Shown piece by piece: positions 1 to 7,138 of a stretch of 7,138 nucleotides of DNA (position 1 is its first letter; every line of letters begins with the position of its first letter). The DNA is taken from IMG/VR virus record IMGVR_UViG_2737471841_000002, positions 1 to 7,138 of that record, one strand, 5' to 3'. This DNA comes from a virus. Taxonomy: Duplodnaviria > Heunggongvirae > Uroviricota > Caudoviricetes. The translations under genes were made by a program, and so were the position numbers. Under the pieces are notes generated by a model that did no database searches, had not been told where the DNA came from, and worked only from the letters and a program-made list of their open reading frames with translations.

Positions 1-310
1 GGGCAGCTCCTGCCCCACCTGATTCTGGTTGGATTTGTTGTGCATTATCCAGCGTCAGATAAAAAACGTTTGACTGGTTAAGCTCTCCTTTTCTTCTGAA
101 TTCCCTTTTCAAAAGCCCCATCTCTTCCAGTGCCCTAATGTGACTTTTTACTGTCGATCTGCTCACCTCACACTGGTCAGCGACATGTTGATATGAAGGC
201 CAGCATTCGCCATTATCATTGGCGTTATCGGCAAGTTTAATCAGAACCAGTTTTCTCAGTGGGTTGCCAACCTTTATATTCATGGCCTTAGCCATAAGAT
301 TCATGCTCAT
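1..310 (-). CDS. Replication initiation protein (lambda O position), N-terminal 103 codons only; gene continues beyond the window start
   Basis: Minus-strand frame is open from ATG at 310 to the window edge (hand translation MSMNLMAKAMNIKVGNPLRKLVLIKLADNANDNGECWPSYQHVADQCEVSRSTVKSHIRALEEMGLLKREF...). The LADNANDNGECWPS...STV...AL..L pattern looks like the winged-HTH N-terminus of phage replication initiators. Start overlaps the upstream ORF stop (ATGA). It sits downstream of cII as O does in lambda. Absent from the ORF track because it is edge-truncated. Confidence 0.6.
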   Translation of the reverse strand, partial: MSMNLMAKAMNIKVGNPLRKLVLIKLADNANDNGECWPSYQHVADQCEVSRSTVKSHIRALEEMGLLKREFRRKGELNQSNVFYLTLDNAQQIQPESGGAGAA

Positions 311-450
311 TTTGACTTCTCCGAAGTTTTGTACCTGTTAAGTATTTCTCTCAGTGGCACAGCTATTGCTGGATTAACCCCCTGATAAAACTGGTCACGT
401 AGCACATCTTTTCGGTGATTAACGCGTTTATTTTCCTGCGTTTTTCGCAT
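307..450 (-). CDS. Hypothetical small basic protein (47 aa) between cII and the replication gene
   Basis: 3' part of track ORF 307..618; the upstream part overlaps cII out of frame. ATG at 450 is preceded by GAGGT with a 6-nt spacer; stop overlaps the next gene's start. No family recognised. Confidence 0.4.
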   Translation of the reverse strand: MRKTQENKRVNHRKDVLRDQFYQGVNPAIAVPLREILNRYKTSEKSK

Positions 451-455
451 ATAAT
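427..455 (+). promoter_or_regulatory. Candidate Po-like promoter for the oop-like RNA (perfect TATAAT at 450-455, weak -35 TTTATT near 427-432)
   Basis: TATAAT read directly on the + strand about 50 nt upstream of the oop-like terminator; the -35 is poor. Position matches lambda Po (between cII and O, opposite to cII). Confidence 0.4.
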
Positions 456-461
456 TACCTC

Positions 462-531
462 GTTGGATGTTATTAAAATTCCATTTGTATTTGATCAGAA
501 CGCTCGGTCTTGCACACCGGGCGTTTTTTAT
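462..531 (+). ncRNA. oop: oop-like antisense RNA overlapping the cII 3' end, ending at an intrinsic terminator (stem 501-508/516-523, T-run 524-529)
   Basis: + strand gatcagaacgctcggtcttgcacaccgggcgttttttattggtgag closely resembles the lambda oop terminator as recalled. Stem cgctcggt/accgggcg (one G-U pair), 7-nt loop, then TTTTTT. It lies antisense inside the last ~57 nt of cII. The 5' end is inferred from the promoter, not observed. Confidence 0.55.
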
Positions 532-772
532 TGGTGAGTCCATCAAGTGCATACTTAAAAGCCCTGCTAATCGGACTGATGTCTGATGCCATTCCGAAAG
601 CACACAAGACCGAAGCAATAAACCTCCAGTCCGTTCTGCTTATCTTCGATTCATGACAGCCAATCATCTTTGCCAGACCGCGCTGGGTAAGCGTTGACAG
701 GTTGATGAGTAAATCAGTTTCAGCGCGATCAACGTCGCGCTGTGATAGTTTGCTGTAACTTGTTTGTTCCAT
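473..772 (-). CDS. cII: CII-family transcriptional activator of lysogeny (99 aa)
   Basis: Track ORF 473..772. C-terminus LTNKKRPVCKTERSDQIQMEF matches the lambda CII tail (..TNKKRPAATERSEQIQMEF); an HTH-like segment TQRGLAKMIGCHESKISR is present; gene lies immediately downstream of cro. The N-terminal two thirds differ from lambda CII. Confidence 0.85.
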   Translation of the reverse strand: MEQTSYSKLSQRDVDRAETDLLINLSTLTQRGLAKMIGCHESKISRTDWRFIASVLCAFGMASDISPISRAFKYALDGLTNKKRPVCKTERSDQIQMEF

Positions 773-782
773 TTCTTACTAT
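750..782 (+). promoter_or_regulatory. Candidate PRE-like CII-activated promoter (TTGC-N6-TTGT at 750-763, possible -10 TACTAT at 777-782)
   Basis: A TTGCtgtaacTTGT repeat overlaps the first codons of cII on the opposite strand and points toward cI, as lambda PRE does. The second repeat is imperfect (TTGT). Confidence 0.3.
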
Positions 783-836
783 TTCCATAGGTAAATAATC
801 ACTAATACTCATCTTTCGATGAGTGCTTAATTAGTT

Positions 837-871
837 ACCGCGTTGTCGGCGGTGCAGATTGATAAAGAGCG
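837..871 (-). promoter_or_regulatory. nutR: boxA (863-871, reads CGCTCTTTA on - strand) and P22-type boxB hairpin (837-853, reads ACCGCCGACAACGCGGT)
   Basis: Immediately downstream of the cro stop in the PR transcript. boxB matches the P22 nutR boxB as recalled and is an interrupted palindrome ACCGC-CGACAAC-GCGGT. Confidence 0.8.
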
Positions 872-878
872 GTGTTAC

Positions 879-1079
879 TTATGCAGTTGTTTTTTTGTTG
901 CTTGGGAAGGGCTTTATTTCTTCCGCATAAACGCTTCCATCAGCGTTTATAGTTAAAAAAATATTTCGGCCTGCATGAATGGCCTTGTTGATCGCGCTTT
1001 GATATACGCCGAGATCTTTAGCCGTCTTGGTTTGACCAAAGCGCATTGCATAATCTTTCAGGGTTATGCGTTGTTCCAT
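879..1079 (-). CDS. cro: Cro repressor, lambda type (66 aa)
   Basis: Track ORF translation [66 protein letters not shown] is near-identical to lambda Cro as recalled (two conservative differences). Confidence 0.95.
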
Positions 1080-1103
1080 ACAACCTCCTTAGTACATGCA
1101 ATC

Positions 1104-1132
1104 ATTATCACCGCTAGAGGTAAAATAGTCAA
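1104..1132 (-). promoter_or_regulatory. PR promoter (-10 GATAAT = + 1104-1109; -35 TTGACT = + 1127-1132; 17-bp spacer), transcribing cro leftward
   Basis: Hexamers read directly; they overlap OR1 and OR2 exactly as in lambda. Confidence 0.85.
1106..1122. promoter_or_regulatory. Operator OR1 (tatcaccgctagaggta)
   Basis: 17-bp lambda-type operator; one substitution relative to lambda OR1 as recalled (TATCACCGCCAGAGGTA). Confidence 0.85.
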
Positions 1133-1146
1133 CACGCACGGTGTTA
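1130..1146. promoter_or_regulatory. Operator OR2 (caacacgcacggtgtta)
   Basis: Matches lambda OR2 as recalled. Confidence 0.85.
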
Positions 1147-1173
1147 GATATTTATCCCTTGCGGTGATAGATT
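1145..1173 (+). promoter_or_regulatory. PRM promoter (-35 TAGATA 1145-1150; -10 TAGATT 1168-1173), giving a near-leaderless cI transcript
   Basis: Lambda-type PRM hexamers with 17-bp spacing; the cI ATG is at 1180. Confidence 0.8.
1153..1169. promoter_or_regulatory. Operator OR3 (tatcccttgcggtgata)
   Basis: Matches lambda OR3 as recalled; overlaps the PRM -10. Confidence 0.85.
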
Positions 1174-1176
1174 TAA

Positions 1177-1893
<717 letters not shown>

Positions 1894-1924
1894 TTCAACG
1901 CAGCGAAAAAGGGTAATTCAATTA

Positions 1925-2797
1925 ATGGAACATGATGATTTACAGCAATTACCATCCCCATTCGCAAAATGGAAGGGGAAGATCGACTTAGGTGGTGAAA
2001 GTATTGATTGCTATGTGCTTGACACTGGACATCGTGTTATAGCTTTGCGAGCAACTGTAAAAGCAATTGCCAATGCGGAGTCAGGAGACCTGGCTAAATT
2101 TATTGGCGTTAGCTCACTTAATGGCTTTATAGACAAAGACTTAGTCCTGGCCGAACTCATAGAGTTTTCCATACCAGGAACCCAATTTAAGAGCCAAGGA
2201 CTTAAGACTGAGCAATTTGAATTGATTTGTCGCGGCTATGTACAGGCGCTATACAAAGGCGCGCCATTGACAGATAGACAGCGAGAAATAGCAATTAAAT
2301 GCGCTGTATTAACAGCGGGTTTAACTAGGACTGGGTTAGATGCTCTAATTGATGAGGCTACTGGGTATCAGTATGAGCGCGCAGAGGATGCTCTCCAAGT
2401 AAAACTCAGGGCGTTCATCGCTGAGGAACTAAGAGCATGGGAAAAAACATTTCCTGATGAGTTATGGGAAGAATTTGGTAGATTGACAGGATGGAGCACC
2501 CCATTGCAATCAAGGCCCAAATGGTGGGGGAAATTAGTTATAGAGTTAATTTATGACACTCTTGACGAAGATGTGGCTAAATATCTTAAAGAAAACAAGC
2601 CTGCGGCAGGAGTTCACTGGCATAGACAGTTAACCGAGAACCTAGGTGTAAGGCAGCTTGTATCAAGGTGCTGGGAGGTTATTGGGGTCGCAAAAACATG
2701 CGACACCATGCATGAGCTAAGAAGTCGAGTAGCTCAACACTATGGAAAGAAACCTGTTCAAATGACAATGTATTTACCGGAAAAAGAAATTAAATAA
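1925..2797 (+). CDS. Hypothetical protein (about 290 aa) at the rexA/rexB position; candidate lysogen-expressed exclusion or defence gene
   Basis: Track ORF 1829..2797; the first in-frame ATG after the cI stop is at 1925 (MEHDDLQQLP...). Same strand as cI and immediately downstream; followed by an intrinsic terminator. It does not resemble lambda RexA or RexB as recalled; no family recognised by eye. Confidence 0.7.
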   Translation: MEHDDLQQLPSPFAKWKGKIDLGGESIDCYVLDTGHRVIALRATVKAIANAESGDLAKFIGVSSLNGFIDKDLVLAELIEFSIPGTQFKSQGLKTEQFELICRGYVQALYKGAPLTDRQREIAIKCAVLTAGLTRTGLDALIDEATGYQYERAEDALQVKLRAFIAEELRAWEKTFPDELWEEFGRLTGWSTPLQSRPKWWGKLVIELIYDTLDEDVAKYLKENKPAAGVHWHRQLTENLGVRQLVSRCWEVIGVAKTCDTMHELRSRVAQHYGKKPVQMTMYLPEKEIK

Positions 2798-2804
2798 TAT
2801 ACAA

Positions 2805-2830
2805 CCCGGCCTCAGCGCCGGGTTTTCTTT
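2805..2830 (+). terminator. Intrinsic terminator closing the cI/rex-locus transcription unit
   Basis: cccggc-ctcagc-gccggg followed by ttttcttt, directly after the stop at 2797. Confidence 0.7.
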
Positions 2831-2985
2831 GCCTCACGATCGTCCACATAAAAAACATAATCAATTGTATTTATTGAAAAATAAATAGATACAACTCACT
2901 AAACATCGCAATTCTGATCTCTCGATCACACCACCACAGCAACACACCCCGGCAAAAAATAAATCTATATAAAAAACATACATAT

Positions 2986-3002
2986 AACAACCTGCGGTGA
3001 TA
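2986..3002. promoter_or_regulatory. Operator OL3 (aacaacctgcggtgata)
   Basis: Lambda-type operator; two differences from lambda OL3 as recalled. Confidence 0.75.
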
Positions 3003-3005
3003 AAT

Positions 3006-3022
3006 TATCTCTGGCGGTGTTG
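3006..3022. promoter_or_regulatory. Operator OL2 (tatctctggcggtgttg)
   Basis: Identical to lambda OL2 as recalled. Confidence 0.85.
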
Positions 3023-3048
3023 ACAAGCATACCACTAGCGGTGATACT
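3020..3048 (+). promoter_or_regulatory. PL promoter (-35 TTGACA 3020-3025; -10 GATACT 3043-3048; 17-bp spacer)
   Basis: Hexamers read directly and embedded in OL1/OL2; the surrounding sequence resembles the lambda PL region as recalled. Confidence 0.9.
3030..3046. promoter_or_regulatory. Operator OL1 (taccactagcggtgata)
   Basis: Lambda-type operator with one substitution relative to lambda OL1 as recalled (TACCACTGGCGGTGATA). Confidence 0.85.
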
Positions 3049-3093
3049 AAACACATCAGCAGGACGCTGGTAGCCAAACGGAACAGATTGGCA

Positions 3094-3128
3094 TGCTCTT
3101 TAACTTCGATGGGGCGCTGACAAAGCGC
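3094..3128 (+). promoter_or_regulatory. nutL: boxA (tgctctttaa, 3094-3103) and P22-type boxB hairpin (gcgctgacaaagcgc, 3114-3128)
   Basis: boxB is identical to the P22 nutL boxB as recalled (GCGCUGACAAAGCGC), a 5-bp stem with a GACAA loop, about 30 nt downstream of the PL start region. Confidence 0.85.
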
Positions 3129-3247
3129 AAACAGATACCAAACGAGATGGGTTTGGCGGTGATGTGAATTGCAGCTGCAACGACAGCAACCAGAAGATCA
3201 GCACCTGGCGCATCACCACCAAAGCCATTTCACATGAGGAAAATATC

Positions 3248-3556
3248 ATGACGGTAATCGTGTACGGAAAATCAACATTTGCAGGAAATGCCAAAACTCG
3301 CCGTCATGAGCGGCGCAGAAAGCTGGCTATCGAGCGTGATGCTATATGCAACATCATCGATTCGATCTTCGGCACAGACAGTGAGGAACCTGTTCAGGAA
3401 GCCCCGAGAAAGCGTTTAAGCATTTCTGAAAAAGCAATATCACTCGGCATCATTAGCAAATCAAATACAGATGCGAATAGCGGAAGCGTTTGTTTGCCTG
3501 AAGTTGCACTGTATGCTGCTGGTTACAGAAGGCAAAAACTAATTACAGCGAGGTAA
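3248..3556 (+). CDS. N: N-type transcription antiterminator, P22 gene 24 type (102 aa)
   Basis: Track ORF 3164..3556 with internal ATG at 3248 preceded by GAGGA; MTVIVYGKSTFAGNAKTRRHERRRKLAIERD... contains the P22 N arginine-rich motif (NAKTRRHERRRKLAIER) as recalled. It is first in the PL operon and paired with P22-type boxB sites. Confidence 0.9.
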   Translation: MTVIVYGKSTFAGNAKTRRHERRRKLAIERDAICNIIDSIFGTDSEEPVQEAPRKRLSISEKAISLGIISKSNTDANSGSVCLPEVALYAAGYRRQKLITAR

Positions 3557-3558
3557 AA

Positions 3559-3837
3559 ATGAAGCCTAGCATAACAATCAAGCCAGCGAGAGATAATAGC
3601 AGGAACCGCCGCAGAGAGGCCAGGAAGGCAGAAAGAGCAGAGAAGGAAAACAAGAGCCGGGAGGAGAGAAAGGCAGAGATTTTGGAAAAAGGAGGATTGG
3701 CTGCCGTGAGGGGTGAAAAAGCAGCTGAATTAGCAGTAGCTCACGAAAAGACAGAGATTGACAATAATTCTGGTGGAGATGCAATGTTTAAAGTTGTCAA
3801 TCACGCCCATCAACGAAACCCCAAAAAGAAATGGTAA
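3559..3837 (+). CDS. Hypothetical highly charged basic protein (92 aa) with an arginine-rich N-terminal segment
   Basis: Track ORF; ATG two nt after the N stop, with the GAGG Shine-Dalgarno inside the N 3' end (translational coupling). Composition RDNSRNRRREARKAERAEKENKSREERKAE. Confidence 0.55.
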   Translation: MKPSITIKPARDNSRNRRREARKAERAEKENKSREERKAEILEKGGLAAVRGEKAAELAVAHEKTEIDNNSGGDAMFKVVNHAHQRNPKKKW

Positions 3838-3840
3838 TCA

Positions 3841-3862
3841 ACCCGTCCAAGACGGGTTTTTT
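3841..3862 (+). terminator. Intrinsic terminator (tL1-like) after the 92-aa ORF
   Basis: acccgtccaagacgggtttttt: GC-rich stem then T6, three nt after the stop. Confidence 0.7.
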
Positions 3863-3894
3863 ATTGCAAGCAAACCACTTATTTGAGGTGAGAT

Positions 3895-4146
3895 ATGGAG
3901 TTTCATGAAAGTGCGATTTGTGATTTTCGCGCTAACGCAAATTCAGTAAAACCACAGCCAATTGCAGTTCTTTTTAAAACAATGGGTGCGTGGGCTGTTT
4001 TATGCTTCGCCGCTGATGACACTGACGCAAGAATGGCAATAGGCCAAGAGATGGAGATGGACCCGACAAACGATGAATTCATAATTTATGGCGCTCCATC
4101 TAATTACTTACTTGATACCTGCAACATTTACAACAAGGCTGCCTGA
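3895..4146 (+). CDS. Hypothetical protein (83 aa) with a hydrophobic central segment
   Basis: Track ORF; GAGGTG Shine-Dalgarno 5-10 nt upstream of the ATG. No family recognised. Confidence 0.5.
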   Translation: MEFHESAICDFRANANSVKPQPIAVLFKTMGAWAVLCFAADDTDARMAIGQEMEMDPTNDEFIIYGAPSNYLLDTCNIYNKAA

Positions 4147-4282
4147 TGGTGGCCTTTATTTTTGGCATAAACAACAGAATAAACACTGCACTGTGTATTC
4201 ATTCCAACGAGTGAATACACGGAGCAATGTCGCTCGTAACTAAACAGGAGCCGACTTGTTCTGATTATTGGAAATCTTCTTT

Positions 4283-4310
4283 GCCCTCCAGTGTGAGGGC
4301 AATTTTTTTT
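4283..4310 (+). terminator. Intrinsic terminator (tL2-like) directly upstream of the next gene's ribosome-binding site
   Basis: gccctc-cagtgt-gagggc followed by aatttttttt. Confidence 0.7.
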
Positions 4311-4322
4311 GATGGAGGATAT

Positions 4323-5291
4323 ATGAGTGAAGTAACAGATTTAGTTGTTATTGAAAAAGCAAATGCAATGACTGTATTTCAGTCTGCCGACCAGATTGAA
4401 GAAATCCTTCAAAAGGTTGAACGTGAAGTTATGTCCTTTGTGCCTGATATCACAACGGCAAAGGGCAGAAAGGAGATCGCTTCTCTGGCGTATAAAGTTG
4501 CGCAGACGAAAACATATCTCGATGGTCTTGGCAAAGACCTTGTTGCTGAACTGAAGGAAATTCCAAAGCTAATTGATGCCAACCGCAAGACAGTGCGTGA
4601 TCGACTTGATGAGCTGAAAGCCAAGGCACGCCAGCCTCTTACTGATTATGAGGATGAACAGGCACGGATTAAAGCCGAAGAAGAAGCTAAGGCAGCAGCT
4701 GAAGCTCTCGCAAAGCAAATTGAGTCTGACCATGAAATAGCGATTTTGATGGATCGCGAATTTGACCGCCAAAGAGAAGAGGCAAGACTCAAAGCGGAGC
4801 AGGAAAAGCGAGAGCATGAAGAACGCTTAAAAAGAGAAGCTGAAGAGAAAGCCAGAGCAGAAGCCGAAGCAAAGGCAAAAGCAGAAATTGAAGCAGCAGC
4901 AAGACGAGAAGCAGAGGCTAAGGCCGCAGCGGAACGTGCAGAGCGTGAACGCATTGAAGCCGAGCAACGAGCACAGCGCGAAGCAAAAGAGGCAGCAGAA
5001 CGAGCTGAAAAAGAAAAGCAGGCAGCAATTGAAGCAGAACGCAGAAAAGCACAGGAGGAGGCTGAACGAATCCGTCGCGAGGCTGAAGCAAAAGAGCAAG
5101 CCAGAATCGCAGAAGAAAAAAGAATCAAGGACGAAGAAGAGCACAGAGCAAAGGATAAAGCTCACCGGAAAGAAGTAAATAACAAAATACTTGCTGACCT
5201 TATCAAGGTTGGCGCATCAGAAGATGTTGCTAAAAATATCATAACAGCCATCGTAAAAGGCGAAGTATTCGCAACAAAAATAACCTACTAA
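4323..5291 (+). CDS. Hypothetical protein (322 aa): N-terminal domain, ~180-aa E/A/K/R-rich helical region, short C-terminal domain
   Basis: Track ORF 4227..5291; internal ATG at 4323 is preceded by GGAGG and lies downstream of the terminator at 4283-4310, so 4323 is the likely start. The central region is a degenerate charged repeat (EAEAKAKAEIEAAARREAEAKAAAERAERERIEAEQRAQREAKEAAERAEKEK). Confidence 0.7.
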   Translation: MSEVTDLVVIEKANAMTVFQSADQIEEILQKVEREVMSFVPDITTAKGRKEIASLAYKVAQTKTYLDGLGKDLVAELKEIPKLIDANRKTVRDRLDELKAKARQPLTDYEDEQARIKAEEEAKAAAEALAKQIESDHEIAILMDREFDRQREEARLKAEQEKREHEERLKREAEEKARAEAEAKAKAEIEAAARREAEAKAAAERAERERIEAEQRAQREAKEAAERAEKEKQAAIEAERRKAQEEAERIRREAEAKEQARIAEEKRIKDEEEHRAKDKAHRKEVNNKILADLIKVGASEDVAKNIITAIVKGEVFATKITY

Positions 5292-5315
5292 TAAAACCAA
5301 CATAAGGAACCACCC

Positions 5316-5462
5316 ATGATTTACGCAATCGCGGGAGGCGCTCGCATGGGTGCCTTCCAACTAAATGAATCTTTACTTGAACGAATCACCCGTAAATTAC
5401 GTGACGGATGGAAACGACTCATCGACGTACTTAATCAGCCAGGAGTTCCAAAAAATGGATAA
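5316..5462 (+). CDS. cIII: CIII-like protein (48 aa), the lambda FtsH inhibitor that stabilises CII
   Basis: Hand translation MIYAIAGGARMGAFQLNESLLERITRKLRDGWKRLIDVLNQPGVPKNG; its core matches lambda CIII as recalled (ESLLERITRKLRDGWKRLIDILNQPGVPKNG). AAGGA Shine-Dalgarno upstream. Below the ORF-track length cutoff. Confidence 0.7.
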   Translation: MIYAIAGGARMGAFQLNESLLERITRKLRDGWKRLIDVLNQPGVPKNG

Positions 5463-5568
5463 AACACTTATGGCTATTCAGACTAAATTCACTATCGCCA
5501 CTTTTATTGGCGATGAAAAGATGTTTCGTGAGGCCGTCGAAGCCTACAGAAAATGGAGGTCTAAATGA
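5455..5568 (+). CDS. kil: Kil-like host cell-division inhibitor (37 aa)
   Basis: Internal ATG of track ORF 5365..5568, preceded by AGGAG; MDKTLMAIQTKFTIATFIGDEKMFREAVEAYRKW resembles the lambda Kil N-terminus as recalled. Overlaps the cIII 3' end by 8 nt. Confidence 0.6.
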   Translation: MDKTLMAIQTKFTIATFIGDEKMFREAVEAYRKWRSK

Positions 5569-5753
5569 TTCCGGTAGAGCTGGCGAAAACTCCAGAGTTA
5601 AGTCGATTAAAAAGAGAATATCACATTGCTGAGGCTCGTTACTGGCGTAAAGCGGGAGATAAATCAAAGAAACAACTTTGTTTATGGCAAGCACAAAGAG
5701 AGCGCATGAATGAGCGCGAATTTCTTTCCTCCCCATCCGAATTACCATTCTGA
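5565..5753 (+). CDS. Hypothetical protein (62 aa) in the position lambda uses for gam
   Basis: Track ORF; start overlaps the kil stop (ATGA). No resemblance to lambda Gam as recalled. Confidence 0.45.
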   Translation: MIPVELAKTPELSRLKREYHIAEARYWRKAGDKSKKQLCLWQAQRERMNEREFLSSPSELPF

Positions 5754-5761
5754 GGTGAATT

Positions 5762-6469
5762 ATGGATTTGAATAAATTCGATGAGCCATTCAGCCCTGAA
5801 GATATCGAATGGCGAATACAGCAAAGCGGTAAAACACGCGATGGAAAAGTGTGGGCTATGGTGCTGGCTTATGTCACGAACAGGGCAATCATGAAACGCC
5901 TGGACGATGTTTGCGGCAAAGCAGGATGGCGCAATGAATACCGCGATATTCCCAACAACGGAGGCGTTGAATGCGGCATATCAATCAGGATTGATTCCGA
6001 ATGGGTAACCAAATGGGATGCTGCTGAAAACACGCAGGTAGAAGCCGTCAAAGGTGGTCGTTCAGGTGCAATGAAGCGTGCTGCCGTTCAGTGGGGAATC
6101 GGTCGGTATCTGTATAACCTTGAGGAAGGTTTCGCACAAACATCTCTCGATAAAAAGCAGGGGTGGCACAGGGCAAAACTGAAGGATGGAACAGGATTTT
6201 ACTGGCTCCCTCCATCGCTGCCGGGATGGGCAATCCCAGCATCAGATAACAAACCATCACCAGAAAATACCAACCAGAAATCTCCATCGGTTGACTGCGA
6301 ACAAATCCTGAAAGACTTCAGCGATTATGCGTCAACAGAAACTGACAAGAAAAAACTCATCGAGCGTTATCAGCGTGACTGGCAATTAATGGCTGGCAAC
6401 GAGGAGGCGCAGGCTAAATGCGTTCAGGTAATGAACATCAGAGTTAACGAACTAAAACAGGCGGCATAA
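5762..6469 (+). CDS. Rad52-like single-strand annealing protein (phage recombinase, 235 aa)
   Basis: Track ORF; GAGGTG Shine-Dalgarno. The segment EAVKGGRSGAMKRAAVQWGIGRYLY parallels the conserved Rad52 motif (EAVTDGLKRALRSFGNALG); gene is immediately followed by ssb. Confidence 0.75.
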   Translation: MDLNKFDEPFSPEDIEWRIQQSGKTRDGKVWAMVLAYVTNRAIMKRLDDVCGKAGWRNEYRDIPNNGGVECGISIRIDSEWVTKWDAAENTQVEAVKGGRSGAMKRAAVQWGIGRYLYNLEEGFAQTSLDKKQGWHRAKLKDGTGFYWLPPSLPGWAIPASDNKPSPENTNQKSPSVDCEQILKDFSDYASTETDKKKLIERYQRDWQLMAGNEEAQAKCVQVMNIRVNELKQAA

Positions 6470-6943
6470 ATGGCAAGCAGAGGCGTAAATAAGGTGATCA
6501 TTATTGGTCGCCTTGGGCATGATCCAGAAATCAGATATTCACCATCAGGAACGGCATTTGCAAACCTTACCGTTGCTACGTCAGAACAATGGCGTGATAA
6601 GAAAACTGGAGAGCAAAAGGAGCAGACGGAGTGGCACCGCGTGGTAATGAGCGGGAAACTGGCAGAAATTGCCAGCGAATATCTGCGAAAAGGCTCTGAT
6701 GTTTATCTTGAAGGCAAATTGCGGACAAGAAAATGGCAGGATCAAAGTGGACAGGATCGGTTCACTACCGAAGTCATCGTGGGCGTTGGTGGAACCATGC
6801 AAATGCTTGGTGGCAAGCAAGGAGGCAATGAACAGTCTTCACCTCAGCGAAATAACGGTCATCAACAAAGACAGCAACCTCAGCAGCATGGAAATCACAG
6901 CGAACCACCTATGAACTTCGACGATTCGGATATTCCGTTCTAG
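6470..6943 (+). CDS. ssb: Single-stranded DNA-binding protein (157 aa)
   Basis: Track ORF resembles E. coli SSB along its OB-fold region ([16 protein letters not shown]...TEWHRVV...[11 protein letters not shown]) as recalled, with a Gly/Gln-rich linker and acidic tail ending DDSDIPF. Start ATG abuts the upstream stop (TAAATG). Confidence 0.95.
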
Positions 6944-6952
6944 GAGCTGAAT

Positions 6953-7138
6953 ATGAAAATCTGCTCAAGATGCCATCAACAGAAGGAAGAAAGGGACTTT
7001 CAAATCAGAAGAGCATCCAGAGATGGATTAACTGCCGCTTGCCGGGCTTGCCTGGCTGAATATGACAAAGAGCGCGCGGGATTGCCACATCGAGTATCAG
7101 CAAGGAGAGAATATCAATCATCGGAACGCGGCAGAGAA
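6953..7138 (+). CDS. Hypothetical Cys-rich protein, N-terminal 62 codons only; runs off the window end
   Basis: ATG at 6953 preceded by AGGAG with a 6-nt spacer; hand translation MKICSRCHQQKEERDFQIRRASRDGLTAACRACLAEYDKERAGL... has two CxxC-like pairs (C4, C7, C30, C33). Confidence 0.45.
   Translation, partial: MKICSRCHQQKEERDFQIRRASRDGLTAACRACLAEYDKERAGLPHRVSARREYQSSERGRE

Follow-up and report, generated by a model that had tools for sequence, protein, structure and literature searches.

A Nun-family gene coupled to a P22-type N gene in a lambdoid early region, with a predicted specificity for HK620-type nut sites

The early region and the gene that follows N

The window, that is, the whole stretch of 7,138 nucleotides that was analyzed (positions 1 to 7,138 of IMG/VR virus record IMGVR_UViG_2737471841_000002, Caudoviricetes), is a lambdoid early region in the orientation opposite to that of the lambda map. 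The following features were identified:

473-772, minus strand: cII, lambdoid early gene
837-871, minus strand: nutR, with boxA CGCTCTTTA at 871-863 and boxB ACCGCCGACAACGCGGT at 853-837
879-1079, minus strand: cro, lambdoid early gene
1180-1893: cI, 98% identical to lambda cI
1925-2797, plus strand: P63C-domain ORF of 290 aa (PF10546, phrog_2384), in the rexAB position
2803-2824: terminator 3' of the P63C-domain ORF
3020-3048, plus strand: PL promoter (TTGACA-17-GATACT, 10 of 12 consensus matches) within lambda-like OL operators
3094-3128, plus strand: nutL, with boxA TGCTCTTTAAC at 3094-3104 and the P22-type boxB GCGCTGACAAAGCGC at 3114-3128
3248-3556, plus strand: N antiterminator gene of the P22 gp24 type (ATG at 3248, TAA at 3554-3556), with the arginine-rich motif (ARM) GNAKTRRHERRRKLAIERD
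3550-3553, plus strand: Shine-Dalgarno sequence GAGG of the next gene, inside the last N codons and 5 nt before its ATG
3559-3837, plus strand: gene of 92 codons assigned to the Nun family (phrog_5632, PDB 6ALG chain N, hhalign, dN/dS), a predicted transcription-arrest or exclusion factor
3580-3702, plus strand: codons 8-48 of this gene, the ARM RDNSRNRRREARKAERAE and adjoining helix, within an N-terminal module (1-48) homologous to HK620-type N
3775-3834, plus strand: codons 73-92, the C-terminal RNA-polymerase arrest peptide GDAMFKVVNHAHQRNPKKKW, delineated by alignment to 6ALG chain N
3840-3866, plus strand: intrinsic terminator (8-bp stem with 5 G-C pairs, T-run) directly after this gene
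4323-5291, plus strand: 322-aa ORF (phrog_1376) with a very long Glu/Ala/Lys/Arg-rich central region, probably a coiled-coil

The gene at 3248-3556, which the first-pass annotation had called N, is indeed an N gene, as indicated by its matches to Pfam PF25694 (N_peptide, E=1.9e-38) and phrog_271 (E=2e-35) and by 66.7% identity to P22 gene 24 over the full length. Both nut sites of the window are of the same P22 type. The nutL boxB GCGCTGACAAAGCGC is identical to the annotated nutL boxB of P22 and forms a hairpin of -8.6 kcal/mol (z=-3.5), the loop of the nutR boxB is of the GACAA (P22) type rather than the HK620 type, and no HK620-type boxB is found anywhere in the window. The search for sigma-70-like promoters upstream of N and the Nun-like ORF gave PL alone.

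Several features of the surrounding region are worth recording. A mosaic joint lies within 1180-3100, where a lambda-type cI and lambda-like OL/PL are followed, just past PL, by a P22-type nutL and N. The P63C-domain ORF, located between the lambda-type cI and a terminator, would share a transcript with the repressor in a lysogen, which makes it a candidate for a moron or defence gene expressed by the prophage. On the 3' side of the Nun-like ORF, the terminator is followed by two ORFs of unknown function, an Erf/Rad52-type recombinase and SSB. Relatives of the 322-aa ORF are named 'cell envelope biogenesis protein TolA' in RefSeq, which is probably a compositional mis-annotation. The entire window is contiguous in no complete E. 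coli genome (best coverage 66%).

The ATG of the Nun-like ORF lies 2 nt past the N stop codon, with the ribosome-binding site within N, as originally described, and equivalent junctions in which the Shine-Dalgarno sequence overlies the N stop are present in relatives L011, L012, L003 and L007. The terminator that follows the ORF (-14 kcal/mol, z=-3.25) is placed like the one that follows nun in HK022 and has equivalents in all relatives. Near-identical copies of the ORF (at least 96% identity) are present in 32 of 5,426 complete E. coli genomes, and all are RefSeq coding sequences named 'hypothetical protein'. Prophages with the ORF are present in, for example, E. coli W and UMNK88. Among the genomes that carry it are two RefSeq assemblies labelled E. 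coli DH5alpha (NZ_CP026085.1 and NZ_CM135829.1, 4.83 Mb); this is unexpected for a K-12 derivative, and the strains may be mislabelled or contaminated. More divergent homologues, at 45-86% identity, come from E. coli, one Enterobacter genome and metagenome assemblies; a word-indexed homology search gave just 11 close relatives. The first-pass annotation had asked whether homologues always adjoin N-type genes, and in every relative with enough upstream sequence the gene starts 2-7 nt after an N-family gene and is followed by an intrinsic terminator.

Comparison with these relatives gives dN/dS of 0.12-0.28 in the frame of the ORF (Nei-Gojobori; pS about 0.4). The ARM (pN 0.03-0.06) and the final 20 codons (0.02-0.04) show the least non-synonymous change, and the linker shows more (0.10-0.15); because of this pattern and the low dN/dS, the ORF is a real gene under purifying selection, and the conservation and frame check proposed for it comes out in its favor. 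The AF2 model of the product contains a helix at 14-43 (pLDDT 85-93), a second helix and a low-confidence tail, with a pTM of 0.36 and no globular fold, and fits an intrinsically disordered, tethered peptide. Nun is likewise described as intrinsically disordered in reviews (PMC6391919).

A Nun-type tail and an N-type head

The PHROGs profile of 'Nun-like transcription termination factor' (phrog_5632) matches the ORF product almost end to end (E=1.5e-29, residues 1-92 against positions 4-111 of 112). PHROGs is the sole recognizer of this protein among the collections searched, with no match in Pfam (at E<=0.1), NCBIfam or PADLOC. Chain N of 6ALG, which is HK022 Nun bound in an arrested elongation complex, is the best match among PDB sequences (E=5.4e-5). 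The C-terminal tail MFKVVNHAHQRNPKKKW aligns to MHRVVNHAHQRNPNKKW of HK022 Nun, with 15 of the last 17 residues identical, and the residues of the arrest peptide correspond one to one: H82 to H98, H84 to H100, R86 to R102, K90/K91 to K106/K107 and W92 to W108 of Nun, with the contact residue N97 also retained as N81. In the cryo-EM structure, N97, H98 and H100 of Nun touch RNA, template DNA and the beta' rudder, residues R102 to W108 touch beta', RNA and the fork, and mutation of H98, K106/K107 or W108 abolishes or reduces function in vivo (PMC5386594). The residues of the arrest peptide are invariant across the Nun-like family; the ORF product has F77 at the position of H93 and is missing the terminal Ser109. 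This Nun arrest motif, VVNHAHQRNPKKKW, and the foreign origin of the ARM discussed below were both missed in the first-pass annotation.

The similarity to HK022 Nun extends beyond the tail. Plain MAFFT alignment with HK022 Nun misaligned the ARM, and profile-profile alignment was used instead; hhalign aligns the family of the ORF with HK022-type Nun at 98.4% (E=4.9e-15), ARM on ARM and tail on tail, with homology over the full length. Like HK022 Nun, the ORF product is small and non-globular (92 aa), with an arginine-rich N-terminal motif, RDNSRNRRREARKAERAE, that is predicted to be helical and aligns to the Nun ARM, and a C-terminus of the form ..M.(R/K)VVNHAHQRNP.KKW. Its gene lies, as expected for nun, in a PL operon after nutL, promoter-proximal to the tL1 position, and an intrinsic terminator comes next. 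These features place the ORF, as judged from its sequence, in the Nun transcription-arrest family and not in the N family.

There are also clear differences from HK022 Nun. Apart from the two changes in the tail, the ORF product is shorter than Nun proteins of the HK022 type (109-112 aa) and has a shorter, unrelated linker; in contrast to the ARM of HK022 Nun, SRDRRRIARWEKRIAYAL, its ARM belongs to the lineage of HK620-type N and has no aromatic residue at the position of Nun Y39. Unlike HK022, which has no N and uses put RNA, the phage of the window uses N and nut and keeps an intact N between nutL and the Nun-like gene, an arrangement shared with phage Kapi1 and many viral contigs. Outside HK022, a phage-21-type N likewise precedes many of the nun genes of the HK022 type. 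The ARM of HK022 Nun binds lambda boxB in competition with N, and its C-terminus blocks translocation of RNA polymerase, with the help of Nus factors and boxA (PMC4124055, PMC5386594, PMC6391919). In contrast to this specificity for lambda nut, the predicted target of the ORF product is the HK620-type nut. By its sequence, the ORF is thus an unannotated addition to the Nun kind with a predicted new specificity.

Three independent tests connect the N-terminus to HK620-type N. First, in local alignments of the head against 26 N N-termini with shuffle controls, HK620-type N ranks at the top (score 66, z=6.7), with 37-56 for the next best N types and 25-35 for the adjacent N; relatives L007 and L018 reach 85-105 (z=11-14; maximum 105, z=13.7). 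Second, hhalign of an 11-member alignment of the ORF family against HK620-type N gives 97.3% (E=1.8e-11), residues 1-48 on 1-48 in register, compared with control values of 1.2% for the window's own N and 1.4% for lambda N. Third, when 1.84 billion representatives were searched exhaustively with an HMM of the family, just 23 clusters were found, in which the sole N is a truncated HK620-type N (E=3.4e-4). The pairwise BLASTP comparison of the window ORF with HK620 N is not significant (composition-adjusted E=15), and several ARM positions differ (A/S, A/E, R/A, Q/K); the proposed link comes from profiles, closer relatives and shuffle controls.

The first-pass annotation compared the arginine-rich N-terminal region to the RNA-binding motifs of N proteins, and this comparison holds both in the HK620-type homology and in a weak phrog_271 match (E=7.3e-5) limited to residues 5-67. 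The protein as a whole is not an N: there is no Pfam match, the homology to HK620-type N (AAK28866 for HK620; phrog_271/PF25694) ends at residue 48, and the C-terminal motifs of N are absent. Up to that point the two share, in register, a beta-like leader (I-x-I/V-K/Y), DN(S/A)RNRRR..R...R and RK(I/A)..L..G, a correspondence that implies, as far as sequence can, the same boxB partner. Beyond it, the RNA-polymerase-activating and stabilizing remainder of HK620-type N is swapped for the Nun arrest tail, such that the predicted outcome is arrest and not antitermination. With lambda N and P22 gp24, the ORF product shares the general principle of a short arginine-rich helix for a GNRA-like boxB next to boxA, together with Nus factors; unlike its similarity to HK620-type N, there is no specific ARM similarity to either of these proteins, even though P22 gp24 represents the type of the N encoded next door in cis.

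The ARM of the ORF is not cognate to the boxBs of its own phage, both of which are of the P22 type; it is unrelated to the P22-type N ARM. In the relatives, RDNSRNRRREARKAERAE is invariant behind two N systems, namely the P22 type with boxB GCGCUGACAAAGCGC and the SGRRRERRAALQ type with boxB GGCUGAAAAGCC; therefore it does not co-vary with the neighboring N. The HK620 type of N, which starts with MTVVITYLADDNARNRRRARRQAQREQ in viral contig L107, is found also in HK620, HK140, HK630, mEp213, CUS-3 and several Stx phages, and its annotated nutL boxB is UCCCGCCGAAAUGCGGGA; in HK620 itself, the gene after N (hkaQ) is not Nun-like. The head of the ORF product thus looks, in sequence comparisons, as if it was copied from the HK620-type N of another phage group, and because the ARM is unlike the adjacent N, is like HK620-type N and is found behind two N/boxB types, the likely target is a foreign nut type. 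ARM similarity is an imperfect guide to boxB specificity given that HK022 Nun binds lambda boxB with an ARM weakly similar to that of lambda N.

Nun-type genes in other phages

When IMG/VR was scanned with a back-translated DNA pattern for VVNHAHQR, 45 distinct ORFs were found in 96 contigs, and all of them end in (D/E)(A/V/I)(M/I)xxVVNHAHQRxxxKKW(S). The N-termini of these proteins, by comparison, fall into about ten unrelated arginine-rich classes, including the HK022 Nun type, the type of the window, and P22- or phage-21-N-like types, and one class approximately copies the lambda N ARM (MDAQARRREKRKAKQEEWKKQN compared with MDAQTRRRERRAEKQAQWKAAN in lambda). In 9 of 10 representative cases, the gene directly upstream belongs to the N family (phrog_271). 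Of the 24 distinct pairs compared, 23 have a head that is far closer to a foreign N than to the N located next to it; for example, lambda-like heads score 107-118 against lambda N and 25-29 against the adjacent N, and HK022 Nun, for which lambda nut is the experimentally known target, best matches a lambda-like N. The sole exception is L110, where the upstream gene is not recognizably N: it encodes 92 aa with an ARM like that of its own Nun-type gene and an N-like ending, SGEVTARA, and has neither a phrog_271 match nor the central N region. This gene may be a rearranged N.

In species-representative genomes, the same pattern yields mostly chance matches in unrelated phyla, which were removed by retaining short ORFs ending in KKW, and the true members are confined to Enterobacterales. 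A 3.7-kb contig from a metagenome-assembled genome labelled Oxalobacter sp. (L164, CAKRSU010000058.1) carries an N-nun tandem in which the Nun ORF matches the HK022-type variant L020; it is probably a wrongly binned Enterobacteriaceae phage contig. The searchable literature yielded no account of Nun homologues or of a Nun-type family like this one.

The tandem of a phage-21-type N and an HK022-type nun is the most common arrangement among the viral contigs found. In phage Kapi1 (L013, MT813197), N (1980-2285) and nun (2288-2626) are 2 nt apart, both annotated as 'hypothetical protein', and the Kapi1 nun has one substitution relative to HK022 nun in the shared 112-aa ORF. In HK022 (L001, AF069308), about 130 nt just upstream of nun (approximately 2664-2793) are nearly identical to the 3' end of Kapi1 N; this N-like remnant reads ..KDSNPLGNKIHAVQKIKLYSKLPYGAY, and the N stop codon TGA is now TGG. 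The 'nun without N' state of HK022 thus looks, from the sequence of this remnant, to be derived from an N-nun tandem.

Other arrangements are also observed. In Hafnia phage Pocitis76 (L014, OL512804; 1518-2560), a single N precedes two Nun-type genes that differ in their heads, with a lambda-N-like ARM in ORF43 and a head like the P22/21 N-terminus in ORF42, and a tRNA-Gly is annotated within the nutL leader. Two Nun-type genes in tandem are found also in L032. Finally, a prophage of the Enterobacter cloacae complex (L012, GCA_049238165.1; 4636-5763) combines two N genes of different types in one PL operon, in the order nutL, N1, Nun-like gene, terminator, boxA-less HK620-type boxB and HK620-type N2. 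This arrangement may be a recombination scar or may mean that this class of Nun-like genes sometimes acts within its own operon.

Probable role, alternatives and implications

The reading that we favor, with somewhat better than even confidence, is that the ORF encodes a retargeted exclusion factor of the Nun type which would arrest transcription of phages with HK620-type nut sites, both the RNA target and the arrest being predicted. Under this reading, the protein consists of two modules, the arginine-rich alpha-helix of residues 1-48, which would be the RNA-binding head of an HK620-type N, and the last 20 or so residues, which would be the Nun arrest peptide. The ARM would bind boxB UCCCGCCGAAAUGCGGGA on the nascent nut RNA of a rival with an HK620-type N (candidates are HK620, HK140, HK630, mEp213, CUS-3 and some Stx phages), and occupancy of boxB would shut out the rival's N. 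The tethered tail would then enter the elongation complex and contact the RNA/DNA hybrid, the beta' rudder and the downstream fork, so that translocation would freeze and early transcription of the rival would stop just past its nut sites. The resident phage would escape arrest, its two nut sites being of the P22 type and served by the P22-type N that it encodes. This reading draws directly on the family membership, the arrest residues, the chimeric head, its mismatch with the N and boxBs of the window, the purifying selection, the position after N and the terminator; what is predicted from these is that the protein binds RNA, which boxB it targets, that it causes arrest and when it is expressed. 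We infer foreign-boxB binding, competition with the rival's N and exclusion from the homology of the ARM and from its unlikeness to the N and nut sites of the window. The product would thus probably be directed at competitors and not assist the N encoded beside it.

An alternative that we consider unlikely is that the protein is a Nun-type arrest factor with another target or none, i.e., the boxB of some other phage, a host RNA, or any elongation complex not modified by N, with the protein serving as a general brake on RNA polymerase, for example, in host shut-off or in competition among several co-induced prophages. The conserved tail agrees with this possibility, Nun is toxic when overproduced and in vitro brings any elongation complex to arrest (PMC4124055, PMC5386594), expression is probably from PL together with N, and ARM similarity does not prove RNA specificity. 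However, the first 48 residues are specifically homologous, in register, to one N type, and selection has allowed little change in the ARM (pN 0.03-0.06 with pS about 0.4); both points favor a specific, boxB-like RNA as the partner.

More doubtful still is a self-directed role, in which the protein would bind its own nutL and nutR and, being made in a fixed ratio with N, would damp or time antitermination as a built-in anti-N. Translational coupling to N and co-transcription from PL are compatible with such a function, as is the ability of Nun to work without boxB at high concentration (PMC4124055). The L110 gene, with an ARM more similar to that of its neighbor in cis than in trans (scores of 88 and 57), and the L012 locus, where an HK620-type boxB and N lie directly downstream in the same operon, point in the same direction, and L012 is awkward for a strictly anti-foreign role. 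The evidence from the window itself is against self-targeting: the ARM shows no relationship to the neighboring N (1.2%; score of 33 compared with 66 for HK620-type N), both boxBs are of the P22 type, and relatives with two different N/boxB systems carry an identical ARM. In addition, the heads are like a foreign N in 23 of 24 pairs, the L110 neighbor is not recognizably N, and nun mutants of HK022 grow and lysogenize normally (PMC4124055). The first-pass annotation had suggested an RNA-binding factor or a modulator of antitermination; a genuine second arginine-rich protein coupled to N is indeed present, but an N-like factor or modulator acting on its own nutL and nutR fits poorly with an ARM this dissimilar to that of the resident N.

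A second N-type antiterminator, that is, an N paralogue giving read-through at additional sites, is very improbable: the arginine-rich N-terminus is homologous to an N, with the weak phrog_271 match (E=7.3e-5), but there is no Pfam N_peptide match, and the C-terminal region present in all neighboring N proteins (CLPxVALYAAGYR..TAR or SKP..GRQKIK..PLI) is replaced by the Nun arrest peptide. The possibility that the charged product has an unrelated function, as also raised at the outset, or none at all, has hardly any more to recommend it, because its low-complexity charged composition, the uniform 'hypothetical protein' name in RefSeq and the lack of Pfam, NCBIfam and PADLOC matches are set against dN/dS of 0.12-0.28, a position, Shine-Dalgarno sequence and terminator kept across divergent relatives, and a full-length PHROG match with an invariant functional motif. 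As a Nun-like protein with an N-type RNA-binding motif, the product very probably acts on the nut/antitermination machinery, to judge from these motifs.

Given the tight coupling to N, the Nun-like protein would be made at least early after infection or induction; the coupling suggests synthesis mainly in lytic development. Classical exclusion requires expression from a repressed prophage; upstream of the ORF, PL was the only promoter found. HK022 nun is said to be expressed constitutively from the repressed prophage via P_Nun, as reportedly described by King, Madsen and Weisberg in 2000. In standard and relaxed scans, the 3' end of N yielded no conserved internal promoter, and the P_Nun that HK022 reportedly has is missed by these scans as well. 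Production is presumably from PL with N after infection or induction, and/or from a putative constitutive promoter in the lysogen as for P_Nun. A Nun-like protein made early could act against co-infecting or co-induced rivals.

In reviews, the specificity of Nun is described as unique and the exclusion of lambda as its sole known role (PMC4124055, PMC4496710). The diversity of heads attached to a constant tail raises a broader proposal, for which we see about even chances, that Nun is a modular, retargetable family of lambdoid phages of Enterobacterales. The members would combine a constant jamming tail with heads copied from the N proteins of rivals (lambda-, P22/21-, HK620-type and others), and the gene would be carried behind the phage's own, different N as an 'anti-N', in some phages in two versions. 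The gene of the window would be the member directed against HK620-type N, and HK022, in which a fossil of about 130 nt of the N 3' end still precedes nun, would have come to its N-less state secondarily.

The present observations fill an annotation gap, with 32 E. coli copies named 'hypothetical protein' in RefSeq and no Nun model in NCBIfam or PADLOC. Natural ARM/boxB pairs might serve as RNA-tethering tools, and variants of the arrest peptide could be useful for structural work on RNA-polymerase translocation. Provided that the gene of the window and its relatives function, phages would have in Nun-type arrest a general and programmable way to compete with one another, with specificity set by exchange of an RNA-binding head of about 30 residues; from the head of a given prophage one could then predict the lambdoid phages that it excludes, among them some Stx phages with an HK620-type N.
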